From positions 256,001-320,000 of the forward strand of contig JBMNLI010000010.1 of assembly GCA_050952645.1 (NCBI GenBank): 64,000 nt of DNA. The letters are read 5' to 3'. Shown here in pieces: positions 23,701 through 36,150 of this stretch. A program made the translations under genes and the position numbers. The notes under the pieces were generated by a model. It searched no databases, was not told where the DNA came from, and saw only the letters and a program-made list of their open reading frames with translations. How positions within the stretch are numbered: position 1 is the stretch's first letter; the number at the start of each line of letters is the position of its first letter. The stretch is from Bdellovibrionota bacterium (GTDB taxonomy: Bacteria > Bdellovibrionota_C > UBA2361 > CAKMMH01).

Positions 23701-23780
23701 AAAAAAAATAAGGCGTCCTTTCGTAAAAAAGGGCGCCTCTTAGGAGCGGTCAGATAGGGATTTATAATTCCTAAAAAATT

Positions 23781-23817
23781 CGGCATAGTCGTTGATATTC
23801 GGCTATGCCGTTTTTTC
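23781..23817. terminator. Hairpin downstream of the recombinase
   Basis: CGGCATAGTCG-loop-CGGCTATGCCG with T-runs on both strands. Confidence 0.65.
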
Positions 23818-23819
23818 GT

Positions 23820-25472
23820 TTATTTTGGTAAGTCGATAGCACCAATGCAGTTATAGAAAATTTGAATCCGCTGGGTTCTGCGGCCATCTACCTTTTCAGC
23901 CTTGAATACTATAATTTTGTCAATGAACTCTCGAATAATCTCTGCATCCAATTCTTTAATTTCTGTGTACTTTTTAACCAGTGCCAAAAATCGGTCGGTA
24001 TTGAGGGACTGTTCATTTGCTATATCAATAGTACGCTTTAATTTGATTATCCTTTCTTCCAGGACCTTCTGCTCGGCTTCATATTCAGCCGACATCTTGT
24101 AAAAACGCTCTTCGGGAATTTTGCCCATCACATTGTCCTCATATAGTTTCCGAATGATTTTGTCTATGTCAGCAATGCGAGTCTGTGCTTGTTCATACTC
24201 CTTTTGACTTTGGCGGAGTTCTTTGGCAAGTTCCTTTTCTGAATTATTCGTAACTATACGGATGAATTCCTGTTCATGGTCTTTGGCAAAGGAGGTTACA
24301 CGTCTTAAGTCTTCTAGCAAAAGCTGTTCCACTACAACATTGCGTATCTGATGTGAACTGCACATACCCTTTTTCTTGCGGTAAGTAGCACAAACGAAAT
24401 ATTCCTTATCGTGTGTCCATCCCTTGCCTCTAACCTGATACAGCTTTGCTCCACAGTCGGCACAAAACATCATGCCAGAAAGCATTCCCATTTCACCTAA
24501 TCGCGATGGTCTTCGCTTGCCATCTCTGATTTTCTGCACTGTTTCCCAAGTGCCCTCATCAATAATTGCTTCATGGGTATTTTTGAAAACCAGCCAATCT
24601 TCTGGATTGTTCAATATCTTGACTTTGCTCTTATATGACTTTTTAGAAGTCTTGAAATTTACCGTGTGACCTAGATATTCCATTTTAGCCAAAATATCTG
24701 CTACGGTACGAGCCGACCAAGCATATGGGTTTTCAGGTGGTCTTGCTGGAGTGTTAATACCCATTTTGCGAAGATGAACCGTAGGTGTATCAATGCATCG
24801 CTTTTCAAGTTGCTTTGCTATCTGCGTGGGTCCAAAGCCAGCCATGCACAGTCGGAAAATATCTCTGACCACTTCGGCGGCTTTCTCATCTATAATCCAG
24901 TGCAACTTATCTTCAGGGTCTTTAATATAACCGTAAGGTGGATTGGTGCAGAGTGGCTTACCGGATTGTCCTTTGGATTTGAACACAGCACGGATTTTCT
25001 TGCTAGTATCCTTAGCGTACCATTCATTAATAATGTTAAGAAACGGTGTAAAGTCACTGTCTGCTTGGTTTGCACTATCAATACCGTTGTTAATAGCAAT
25101 AAATCGTACATCTGCTTCAGGAAACATAATCTCGGTATAATAACCTACTTTGAGGTAATCCCTGCCGAAGCGGGACATATCCTTGATGATAATCGTTCCG
25201 ATTCTACCGGACTCTACATCTGCAATCATGCGGTTAAAGTCTGGTCTATCAAAAGTTGTACCGCTGACCCCATCATCCACATAAAATTCGATGTTACGAA
25301 AACCGTTGTCCTCAGCATATTTCTTTAGAATTGCCTTCTGGTTTACTATACTGTTGCTGTCCCCTGCAAGCTCATCATCACGGGAAAGCCTGCAGTAAAG
25401 AGCAGTAATTTTCGCTTCTTCAAATGCTAATGTTGATTTACGTATAGTGCTAAATGTTGACTGTCTATTCAT
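23820..25472 (-). CDS. Large serine recombinase (TnpX-like, with zinc ribbon and DUF4368-like C-terminus)
   Basis: YCRLS catalytic Ser, [23 protein letters not shown], coiled coil, IQIFYNCIG. Confidence 0.95.
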
Positions 25473-25529
25473 TTTTCTCCTCCATTTCCGACAGTCTTCA
25501 AGCGGTTTAGCACTATGTATATTACCGTA

Positions 25530-25733
25530 CTACCTTGAAGAAGTCGAGTTGATTTCCGTGGGTTTATATGAACTATCAGATAACTTTGAAAGGCTTTTTG
25601 CGTTGACTGTAATCAGTCGTTTCAGCTTGGAATATGCACTTTCCTTTGCTGAATCGCTTACTCGTGATTCCACCACATAGACCGTACCTCCGATATCGGA
25701 TTTGGTTGTGCGGCTGTTACTTTGATTTTCCAT
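25530..25733 (-). CDS. tnpW: Transposon-encoded TnpW family protein
   Basis: IGGTVYVV...AKESAYSKLKRLI motif directly upstream of the recombinase; GGAGG RBS before ATG 25733. Confidence 0.75.
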   Translation of the reverse strand: MENQSNSRTTKSDIGGTVYVVESRVSDSAKESAYSKLKRLITVNAKSLSKLSDSSYKPTEINSTSSR

Positions 25734-32883: not shown

Positions 32884-35800
32884 GCATTTACAACATCGTT
32901 GCCAGTACTGACGAAGCAACGGTTGTTGCTGAATATGCAGCTGAATATAATGTCCGTCCTGAAAAGTATCAGAGCGAGGCAGAACTTGAGCGGGAGTTTA
33001 TCAGGCAACTGACTTCCCAAGGATATGAATATATTTCAGTGCACAATGAAGCTGCATTGATAGAAAATCTCCGAAAGCAACTTGAACTGCTTAATGACTT
33101 CACATTTACTGACAGTGAATGGGATAGATTTTTCACAGAATGTATTGCCAATACAAATGAGGGTATTGTTGAAAAGACCAGAAAAATTCAGGATGACCAT
33201 ATCCAGATTCTAAAACGTGAAGATGGAACAACAAAGAACATATACCTTTTGGATAAGAAGAATATCCATAACAATCGCTTGCAGGTTATTAATCAATACG
33301 AAGAAGCGGTGGCAAGCATGAAACCCGATATGATGTAACAATCCTTGTAAATGGACTTCCACTAGTTCATGTGGAGTTAAAGCGTCGTGGTGTTGCTATC
33401 CGTGAAGCCTTCAACCAGATAAAAAGATACCAACGTGACAGCTTTTGGGCGGCTTCTGGTTTATTTGAGTATGTGCAAATATTCGTAATCTCAAATGGCA
33501 CCCATACAAAGTATTATAGTAACACCACAAGAAATGCTCATATCAAGGAGCAAAGCAGCAGTGAACGTCGAAGAAGCAAAAAAACAAGCAACAGCTTTGA
33601 GTTTACCAGCTTTTGGGCAGATGCAAACAACAAAATTATTCCTGACCTTGTGGACTTTACTAAAACATTTTTTGCCAAGCATACCCTCTTAAATATACTA
33701 ACAAAATATTGTATCTTTACATCTGAAGATCTGCTCCTTGTAATGCGTCCTTATCAAATAGCTGCTGCAGAACGTATATTATCACGTATTGTAGTATCAA
33801 CCAACTACAAGAAGATGGGCACAACTGCAGCTGGAGGATATATTTGGCATACAACAGGCTCTGGTAAGACATTGACCAGTTTTAAGACAGCCCAATTAGC
33901 TTCTGCCTTGCCTTACATAGACAAGGTACTGTTTGTCGTTGACCGTAAAGACCTAGACTATCAGACTATGAAGGAATATGACCGTTTTGAAAAGGGGGCA
34001 GCTAACGGTAATACGTCCACAAGAGTTCTTCAAAGACAATTGGAGGACAGGGACGAAAAAGGAAATCCTCATGAATACAAAATCATTGTAACCACTATTC
34101 AGAAGCTGGATATATTTATACGTAAAAACAAACAGCATGATATTTATAAGAAACACGTGGTACTGATTTTTGATGAGTGCCACCGTTCCCAATTTGGTGA
34201 AATGCATCAAGCTATCACGAAGAGTTTTAAGAACTACCATATCTTCGGCTTTACGGGAACCCCGATTTTTGCTGCCAATGCTAGTTCAGGAGGTAACCCA
34301 CTGCTTCGCACAACCGAGCAGGCTTTTGGAGAAAAACTGCATACTTATACCATTGTAGATGCCATCAATGATGGGAATGTTCTGCCTTTTAGAATAGATT
34401 TTATCAATACCATTAAGATGCCTGATTACGTTAATGATAAAAAAGTCTATAGCATAGATAGAGAAAAAGCCTTAGCAGATCCACAGCGAATCAGTGAAAT
34501 TGTTTCTTACGTTCTTGAACACTTTGATCAGAAGACGAAGCGCAATAGTTATTACACATTCTCTGCGAAATGGGAAGAAGCAGATAAGCACAACCCTAAA
34601 AAGATGATTGAAAAGCGTGAAACAAGGCGAGTTGCCGGTTTCAACTCCATATTTGCTGCTGCATCCATCCCAATGGCAATCAGATACTATAATGAGTTTA
34701 AGAAGCAGATAGCGGAAAAGAACCGTAACCTTACCATTGCAACTATTTTCAGTTTTAGTGCAAATGAAGAAGAGCCAGATGGATTGCTTCCTGAAGAGGA
34801 TTTTAATATGGAAAACCTTGACCAGAGCTCCAGAGATTTTCTTGAGGCGGCTATCCGAGATTACAATTCCACATTTAACACGAATTACGATACTTCCTCG
34901 GATAAGTTCCAGAATTATTATAAAGACCTCTCTCTTCGTGTAAAGAATCGGGAGATTGATATATTGATTGTTGTTAATATGTTTCTTACAGGCTTTGATG
35001 CAACAACCCTGAATACGCTATGGGTAGACAAAAATCTGAGACAGCATGGACTGATTCAGGCTTTTTCAAGAACTAACCGCATCCTAAACAGCGTTAAGAC
35101 CTATGGTAATATCGTTTGCTTTAGAGATTTGAAAGAAGAAACAGACAAAGCTATTGCACTATTCGGCAATAAGGATGCAGGCGGTATTGTACTGCTAAAA
35201 ACATTCGATGAATATTATAAGGGATATGATGAAAAAGGTGAACACAAGCCGGGCTATGCTGAACTGATTGCAACCCTTACAACACAGTATCCCCTTGGAC
35301 AACCTATTCTCGGAGAAGAAGCTGAAAAAGAATTTATCAGGTTATATGGAGCAATACTTCGACTCAGAAATATTCTTACTTCCTTCGATGACTTTGAAGG
35401 AAATGAGATTTTATCTGAAAGGGATTTTCAGGACTATCAGAGCATTTATATTGACCTGTATCAGGAATACAGAAAAGGTGCTGATGGTGACAAAGAAACT
35501 ATCAATGATGACATAGTTTTCGAGATTGAACTGGTCAAACAGATAGAGGTAAATATTGACTACATCCTTATGCTTGTAGCCAAATATCAACAATCCAACT
35601 GCAAGGATAAAACCATTCTTACGACCATTGATAAGGCTATCAATTCGAGTATTGAACTTCGAAGTAAGAAAGAACTTATCGAGCGTTTTATTGAGCAAGT
35701 CAATGTATCGACCAAAGTGGATGAGGATTGGCGTAAATTCCTCCATGAGCGTAAGGAAGCGGATATTACAGCAATTATAGAAGAAGAAAGATTAAAGCCT

Positions 35801-35980
35801 GAAGAAACCCGCCGTTTCATCGACAATGCTTTCCGAGATGGGATACTTAAAACGACCGGTACAGCTATTGATAAAATCATGCCACCTGTATCTCGCTTTG
35901 GCGGAGGCAGAGCCGCGAAAAAGCAAGGAATTATCGAAAAACTAATGTTATTCTTTGAGAAGTATTTAGGATTGATATAG
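32880..35980 (+). CDS. hsdR: Type I restriction subunit (EcoR124I-like), frameshift near 33308
   Basis: QSEAELE, RYDVTILVNGLPLVHVELK after frame repair, HTTGSGKT, DECH, FTGTP, MFLTGFD, QAFSRTNR. Confidence 0.95.
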
Positions 35981-36023
35981 ATTAATATCAATCGCTAATT
36001 CAAAAATAATATCTTTATAAAAA

Positions 36024-36070
36024 ACCAGTCACTTCAAGCATTCATGCCTGATTGTGACTGGTCTCTTTTT
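36024..36070 (+). terminator. Rho-independent terminator after hsdR
   Basis: ACCAGTCAC...GTGACTGGT followed by CTCTTTTT. Confidence 0.65.
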
Positions 36071-36150
36071 GCTCCGCTTGAAGCTGTTCATTTAAGTTTT
36101 TCTTCAATCCCTAAGTGAACGCTTCTTTGGGAAGTGTGGTTTTATTTCAT

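Follow-up and report, generated by a model that had tools for sequence, protein, structure and literature searches.

The window analyzed here, 64 kb of contig JBMNLI010000010.1 (positions 256,001–320,000) from the Bdellovibrionota bacterium assembly GCA_050952645.1, contains a mobile element of 12.4 kb at 23740–36128. Coordinates refer to the whole window, and labels such as L011 denote copies or relatives of the element fetched from other genomes or contigs. Both ends of the element are exact, each being the point at which homology to other copies ceases, and the GC content of the region is ~40%, versus 31% for the genome. An earlier reading made from the letters alone (the original prediction) had described the unit as att-bounded. 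The exact ends agree with this, but long direct att repeats were ruled out: a comparison of both ends gives TT alone, situated within an imperfect inverted repeat (the joined ends pair at −22.9 kcal/mol). The recombinase-side att arm, identified by the start of homology and the inverted repeat with the other end, is at 23740–23768 (plus strand, TT core at 23740–23741), and the cargo-side arm, where homology ends in other copies, is at 36101–36128 (plus strand, TT core at 36127–36128).

The named parts of the original prediction (serine recombinase, TnpW, capsid, cos-like tract, primase, Xre regulator and hsdMSR) were all found at the predicted places. The minus strand encodes a large serine recombinase of 550 residues (23820–25472) with Resolvase, Recombinase, Zn ribbon and DUF4368 domains, which these Pfam matches and its rebuilt targets indicate to be of the multi-targeting type; a TnpW-family protein of 67 residues from its ATG (25530–25733, the longest open reading frame (ORF) extending to 25772; PF14202, E 2.7e-13); and an HK97-fold capsid homolog of 299 residues (25809–26708; PF05065). 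Beyond these are a cos-like tract (26741–26835, minus strand), homologous to the spacer between the HNH and terS genes of Ca. Heliusvirales phages, and a predicted replication origin (26887–26974), recognized by its repeats and their conservation. The repeats, previously taken for iterons, exist in the form of two inverted pairs of the heptamer TGTAGCA around a 40-bp spacer. The adjacent primase-polymerase/helicase gene (26981–29282, minus strand; NrS-1 HBD and D5 domains) encodes 767 residues in intact copies, one of which scores above the TIGR01613 cut-off, and is in three pieces here owing to frameshifts at 28901 and 29180. Divergent from the primase and ahead of the cargo is an Xre/Cro-type helix-turn-helix regulator (29931–30152, plus strand; HTH_26, E 1.2e-20), followed on the same strand by hsdM (30136–31726, with a frameshift at ~31135 seen in alignment to other copies), hsdS (31723–32883) and hsdR (32880–35980, with a frameshift at 33307; EcoR124_C, E 2e-72). 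HsdS contains 4.2 copies of a 12-bp TAEL repeat (32198–32247), a hallmark of type IC restriction-modification (R-M) systems, and together with the EcoR124-type HsdR C-terminus and the M-S-R gene order this places the operon in the type IC (EcoR124) family; the HsdS target recognition domains vary between element copies. The Xre regulator may control this operon instead of satellite functions. The element has its own terminator-like hairpins (both plus strand), one 3′ of the recombinase gene (23781–23810, 11-bp stem and T run) and one, read from the sequence, after hsdR (36019–36070; ACCAGTCAC ... GTGACTGGT). Among the element ORFs scanned there were zero matches to terminase, portal, protease, tail or relaxase, as had been claimed, and a promoter scan of the element gave 16 sites against 17 expected.

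A search of GTDB genomes with the capsid homolog identified 64 loci (50 full-length, with 95–99% amino acid identity) in Clostridium, Bacillus-group, Thermoactinomyces, Syntrophomonadaceae, Tissierellaceae, Erysipelotrichaceae and others, and IMG/VR gave 14 more. In close copies the ~6-kb core (23740–29790) is ~93–98% identical at the DNA level, and it is present in dozens of genomes of many Bacillota orders. With gene families assigned by BLASTP against reference proteins, the short capsid was found at 168 of 198 loci, and none of the 168 had terL, portal, ClpP or major tail genes, in contrast to the full-length-capsid loci, in which terL, portal and ClpP were found at 6–9 of 10. The homologs are therefore located outside full prophages, the contrary having been named in advance as a sign of a deletion remnant; one IMG/VR provirus record has terL elsewhere on the record. 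No terS was found at any of the 168 loci by BLASTP with the phi1605 TerS; a variant locus, L188, has a terS homolog between the primase and a truncated capsid gene. The primase is present at 144 of the 168 loci and the cos tract at 149 (at 87 and 84, respectively, of the 88 loci with sufficient flank). The tract is upstream of the capsid gene at 122 loci and downstream at 22, and as it is found on either side it is evidently kept when its position changes.

The core occurs on four chassis: TnpW with one DUF4368 recombinase (the window), a small ORF with two recombinases, a tyrosine integrase with a divergent repressor, and Xis. The clostridial transposon chassis proposed originally fits the window's subtype, but it does not describe the members with tyrosine integrases or double recombinases. 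In several tyrosine-integrase members (L199, L200, L202, L204–L206, L209, L124 and L215) there are two opposed cos-like tracts, which flank a gene for a Heliusvirales “virulence-related protein,” and a 4.7-kb fecal phage scaffold (L081, MT838964.1) has a primase, a short capsid, an inverted cos tract and a Tn916-type Xis. Cargo is of R-M type in 53 of the 58 close copies with cargo in view (26 EcoR124-like, 13 type III, 12 other type I-like and 2 Eco57I-like; 5 other), and OLD, NOV_C, FRG and RhuM are further cargo genes. One copy (L012:2362-6378) has non-defense cargo, an Fe-S ATPase pair and a metallo-hydrolase.

The short capsid lacks ~88 N-terminal residues of the helper scaffold region, of which the last helix is kept, and it aligns to TIGR01554 from position 86 on. 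Short capsids also lack 4–5 residues relative to helper capsids in a loop near residue 215, which we take to be the A-domain loop at the capsomer center: it is 6 residues long in all 14 pattern-matched short capsids (9 unmatched) and 10–11 residues long in all 14 pattern-matched full-length capsids (8 unmatched). The best 120 homologs listed are all ≤305 residues (mostly 296–305) with identities of 51–99%, full length is retained down to ~40% identity, and the closest capsids outside the family, those of Heliusvirales (helper-type), are 44–48% identical, with 42–45% for the best matches among phage records. In two quick unrooted trees (51 versus 22 rows, and 23 versus 22 rows on the shared part), short and full-length capsids were on opposite sides of one branch (Shimodaira-Hasegawa-like approximate likelihood ratio test support 100), and on this phylogeny we consider the short capsids one old clade. 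The predicted model has a confident HK97 fold (pLDDT 88), with the RcGTA capsid as its best structural match (VIA-align; Z 20.9, rmsd 5.4, 244 aligned), and phage and gene transfer agent (GTA) capsids (Z 18–21) ranked above encapsulins (Z 15–17). The capsid gene is under purifying selection: its ratio of nonsynonymous to synonymous substitution (dN/dS) across copies is 0.082 (65 alleles), between those of the recombinase (0.058, 54 alleles) and the primase (0.135), which is not the neutral decay that would be looked for in a relic. The gene is intact in 76 of 80 close copies, and the primase in 55 of 71.

The best match of the cos-like tract is the HNH-terS interval of an Oscillospirales Heliusvirales phage (E 2e-10), and phi1605 is matched as well; the best phage matches of the tract and of the capsid alike are Heliusvirales records and phi1605, and in the element the capsid gene occupies the position that terS has in the phage. 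Variability of the tract is 0.017, versus 0.081–0.086 in the adjacent spacers. The most conserved non-coding stretch is the origin-like repeats (0.0046), and their architecture after the primase is retained in divergent members with a changed repeat sequence. In carrier genomes, BLAST placed sequences ≤83% identical to the tract over 80–92 bp upstream of full-length capsids, and the tract directly precedes terS in all 11 of the co-resident prophage regions that were fetched. From its position and knowledge of the phage family, we regard the tract as a putative cos region at which cleavage would occur. An IS21-like ORF pair (490 and 228 residues; family assigned by eye) was seen directly upstream of the tract in L282, L286, L287 (twice) and L292; one of these contexts is a prophage and four are non-phage, with a recombinase fragment or unrelated DNA after the tract. 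These are possibly cos-carrying insertion sequences or prophage deletion remnants. At L285:12656, a satellite-type serine recombinase takes the place of HNH before the cos of a helper head module, which may be a hybrid of satellite and helper fused at that tract.

Empty sites were rebuilt by joining both host flanks through TT, and 39 same-contig pairs were kept, including L017 and L018, which have a common left flank; seven cross-contig end pairs and one pair without a left end were left out of the terminator statistics. The 39 rebuilt targets fold with a mean energy of −11.8 kcal/mol; when flank pairs are permuted the value is −6.1 ± 0.4 (−7.4 in the best of 2000 permutations), and at 960 random TT sites it is −4.5. 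In 33 of 39 the TT has an A tract upstream of it together with a T tract downstream, versus 4.4% of controls. The consensus target, A-tract, GC stem, TT, GC stem, T-tract, is the loop of an intrinsic terminator. The 39 sites are nearly all different terminator-like sequences, with no more than three element copies per genome, and loose ends in public runs show further sites of this type. The motif is matched without a strong stem at some sites, that of the window among them (−5.7 kcal/mol across the core). In the window the insertion splits the stop codon of a host ORF (36151–36705) from its terminator hairpin; a host intrinsic-terminator-like hairpin with a U tract (12-bp stem, −15.5 kcal/mol, T run in the rebuilt empty site) is in the left flank, outside the element, at 23701–23739 (minus strand). 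One IMG/VR contig (L066) reads through an end-to-end junction of the element, which fits an excised circle but could also be a tandem. Of the circular or packaged form called for by the original prediction, this contig is what was found, and a packaged form was not found. Public RNA runs hold the element solely as contigs, which we have not taken as expression.

Because it combines a shortened capsid gene with a copy of the DNA beside the Heliusvirales packaging genes, the element is likely a phage parasite. We think it probable that Ca. Heliusvirales temperate phages are its helpers and that it is a cos-type, Ccm-like satellite built on a multi-target serine-recombinase chassis; that it is induced and packaged, and what its capsid protein does, are predictions from sequence. 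By the chemistry expected of large serine recombinases (LSRs), the DUF4368 recombinase would integrate a circle at the TT of A-tract/GC-stem/TT/GC-stem/T-tract, a motif that every bacterium is likely to offer many times, and the element would bring its own terminators at both ends. It would be excised as a 10–16 kb circle, which the primase-helicase would replicate from the adjacent heptamer origin, and the HNH, TerS and TerL of the helper would cleave it at the copied cos tract, whose homology and position are seen, and package it. The capsid homolog, probably unable to assemble alone, may, by analogy to the SaPIbov5 Ccm, co-assemble with the helper capsid and steer assembly toward small heads, with room for ~13 kb and too small for the 40–75 kb helper. 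The cargo is swappable and was observed to be mostly R-M. For the fuller account, that an old satellite family redirects Heliusvirales assembly with a scaffold-less capsid, and that one subtype with a terminator-targeting recombinase became a near-identical 13-kb defense shuttle across Bacillota orders, with spill into Bdellovibrionota, Patescibacteria and Caldisericota, we put the chances at about even.

The absence of head-gene modules and the selection on the capsid favor the satellite reading, whereas the excised form is represented by one contig and no packaged form was found. Several further observations weigh against it. The junction was in no contig among those listed for four public runs, and end-repeat (circular) records numbered 0 of 36 in IMG/VR, where all are “linear” or “provirus” (and 0 of 4 in a further set checked). 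The tract is just 57–72% identical to those of co-resident prophages over ~100 columns, whereas SaPIbov5 and its helpers have basically identical cos sites (PMC5052747). The size band speaks for the satellite reading: the 39 complete elements span 10.1–15.8 kb (median 12.9), and 33 are within 11–14.5 kb despite varied cargo, although the band is biased to elements with both ends findable. So does co-occurrence: full-length helper-type capsids are more frequent among carriers (18 of 48 genomes) than among non-carrier Bacillota (22 of 192, from a 201-genome sample in which 8 had short capsids; Fisher p 6e-5), a difference confounded by habitat, kinship and assembly quality. Against the reading, the helper-type capsid is missing from 30 of the 48 carriers. 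A core copy of 94% identity on a 396-kb Bacillus badius plasmid (NZ_CP082364.1:86439-92655) shows another route of spread, and the copies in Caldisericia, Patescibacteria and the window's diderm are beyond the predicted Heliusvirales host range, which is 93.4% Firmicutes (PMC11283538).

Among known systems, the element resembles SaPIbov5 with its Ccm (helper phi12) in its ~13–14 kb, primase and origin, helper-like cos, single capsid homolog, lack of terminase large subunit, portal, protease and tail genes, and size of about one third of the helper genome or less (PMC5052747, PMC8569155). Ccm keeps the delta domain (residues 1–87) and is 24% identical to the helper capsid protein, whereas the element capsid is without most of this domain and is 44–48% identical, and SaPIbov5 uses one site and carries toxins where the element has a multi-target serine recombinase acting at terminators, R-M cargo and many Bacillota orders. 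Judged as a cos-type Staphylococcus aureus pathogenicity island (SaPI), the element carries a putative counterpart of the helper cos region and lacks a cleavable delta domain. With the phage-inducible chromosomal islands (PICIs) of SatelliteFinder, whose integrase may be tyrosine or serine, it shares the integrase, primase-replicase and capsid-morphogenesis gene and the absence of tail and holin genes (PMC10085698); its Xre protein, which may serve the R-M operon, is a candidate for the regulator of alpA/merR/stl type, and the tyrosine-integrase members of the family have a PICI-like layout. The differences from PICIs are the lack of terS, a recombinase 3′ of the capsid in the same operon and no fixed attB, the rebuilt targets being nearly all different where PICIs have a unique attachment site. 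Some family members may be in the supplement of PMC10085698, because the paper reports putative PICIs from Clostridium and Bacillus. The terL, portal, protease and head-tail genes of capsid-forming PICIs (cf-PICIs) are lacking (0 of 168 for terL, portal and ClpP). The portal-less small HK97 entities of PMC13669383 are likewise small integrative elements with a capsid gene, without portal, terminase or tail, and with a proposed satellite lifestyle; their main group is encapsulin-enriched, 8.75 kb in size and has a scaffold gene, and in the accessible part of that paper we saw no mention of a cos, a helper or a serine recombinase. The Heliusvirales and phi1605-like phages (PMC11283538), the source of the capsid and cos-like tract and the predicted helpers, differ in having full head, tail and lysis modules, and “satellite” is nowhere mentioned in that paper.

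The recombinase is alike in domain set, many targets and TT core to the multi-targeting DUF4368 LSRs of the TndX-like clade (PMC10083194, PMC13137831), although the TT example of those papers is T-rich 5′ and A-rich 3′ and the element target is A-rich 5′ and T-rich 3′ around a GC stem. “Terminator” is absent from both main texts and “capsid” from that of PMC10083194, and a motif search of eight supplements of PMC10083194 did not find the element enzyme or att arm. With DUF4368 and more than three targets, the recombinase belongs by domain content with the multi-targeting DUF4368 enzymes. Tn4451 and Tn4453 are mobilizable transposons with TnpX, TnpW and TnpZ, a GA core and a circular intermediate. 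The element is like Tn4451 (by Pfam domains) in its large serine recombinase with TnpW, dinucleotide core and predicted circular intermediate, and differs in its TT core and in having a phage cos, capsid and primase in place of the mobilization module; no element ORF had a Pfam match to a relaxase. The element would work in the manner of a cos SaPI with Ccm, but it departs from cos SaPIs and PICIs in delta domain, terS and fixed att, and it is neither a cf-PICI nor a relaxase-bearing Tn4451-type transposon. In mainly open literature, without the supplements of PMC10085698 and PMC13669383, we found no description of the element family or of terminator-targeting serine recombinases.

It is feasible that the element is instead a defense transposon that travels on plasmids, integrative and conjugative elements or free DNA, its short capsid and cos acting solely as decoys, to poison the assembly of Heliusvirales or to titrate terminase. 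The predominance of defense cargo, the copy on a large plasmid and the copies in phyla without known helpers fit this proposal, and a scaffold-less subunit would be a plausible dominant negative; we nonetheless judge it unlikely, as the conserved primase and origin beside cos and the narrow size band suit replication and packaging better. Still less probable, in our view, is that the short capsid forms its own small shell (encapsulin-like or cf-PICI-like), borrowing portal, terminase and tail, or a non-packaging compartment. The confident fold, the encapsulins among its structural matches and the described portal-less HK97 entities (PMC13669383) are in its favor, but Ccm alone gives no capsids (PMC8569155). 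Scaffold, protease and portal genes were not found at short-capsid loci, and the encapsulin matches score below phage and GTA capsids. The delta domain is reportedly essential for HK97 assembly, to go by the title of a 2014 paper by Oh et al. The least credible account, to which we give very little weight, is that a TnpX-like transposon captured a deletion remnant of a Heliusvirales prophage, in which capsid and cos are passengers. The capsid gene is exactly at the terS position, as a cos-to-capsid deletion would leave it, and cos-bearing remnants exist; yet a dN/dS of 0.082, full length retained to ~40% identity in a single clade, and a tract retained on either side of the capsid gene on four chassis largely refute a remnant for the present state, although this may describe the element's origin.

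A separate question is whether the host assignment holds, as the Bdellovibrionota-like placement could be an assembly chimera and the four indels consensus errors in a multi-host sequence, which we think unlikely. The host is a Bdellovibrionota-like diderm with LpxC, and the nearest named relatives of its SecA and a glycosyltransferase are labeled as Bdellovibrionota or Pseudomonadota metagenome-assembled genomes. Four 1-bp indels, at 28901 and 29180 (primase), ~31135 (hsdM) and 33307 (hsdR), are private to the window copy, none being common to other copies aligned over those places. A chimera would fit with the great abundance of the element in digester metagenomes, the absence of a capsid of this type from 60 host relatives, a right flank (and hence an empty site) not found in 30 relatives, frameshifts in 5 of 73 host genes and the finding of no reads over this genome's junctions. 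Set against these are junctions that are base-exact on both sides and rebuild a stop codon and then a terminator, a left flank whose repeats are host-specific and whose genes are in synteny with those of a same-genus genome (in which unrelated DNA follows the left-flank gene), and an indel density above that of the host: four in 9.9 kb versus ~6 in 83 kb (p 0.006), an excess that decay, or a poor consensus of a repeat present in many hosts, would explain. Independent copies in Caldisericia (L015) and Patescibacteria (L011) have lineage-typical flanks, and that of L011 is intact with both ends rebuilding a terminator. No helper-type TerL was found in the host genome (94% complete), and because the host is a non-Bacillota diderm in which no helper was found, the window copy is probably a dead end, a damaged arrival in an unrelated Gram-negative host. 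As the host has ComEC, uptake of free or prey DNA would be a possible entry route. The suggestion that R-M benefits the host does not apply to this copy as assembled, as hsdM and hsdR are frameshifted; the host, too, is outside Bacillota.

Around the element there is a host-specific, AT-rich dispersed repeat family of ~130–200 bp (23390–23680, 37794–38230 and many genome sites), with tandem 130-bp and 105-bp arrays of AT-rich repeats nearby. The right flank (36151–37164, 40% GC) has two ORFs (184 and 133 residues or shorter) without Pfam or PHROG matches and not found in 30 relatives, the first of which is parted from its terminator by the element. Very long ORFs are present at 42530–48244 (minus strand, 1904 residues) and 50040–54134 (plus strand, 1364 residues).

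The element is real, selected and widespread, and a phage satellite is what we expect it to be. Since the recombinase picks terminator loops, it lands between genes, and it is a candidate broad-host integration tool. In two type strains, Robertmurraya andreesenii DSM 23948 and Clostridium aciditolerans DSM 17425, the element is intact and a helper that looks complete is also present, and the model is directly testable because such non-pathogenic culture-collection strains hold both. If the satellite reading is true, a very widespread gut and digester phage lineage would have its first satellites, and capsid piracy would include a new strategy, a capsid subunit lacking a scaffold of its own; the passage of near-identical restriction islands through an entire phylum would be explained as well.

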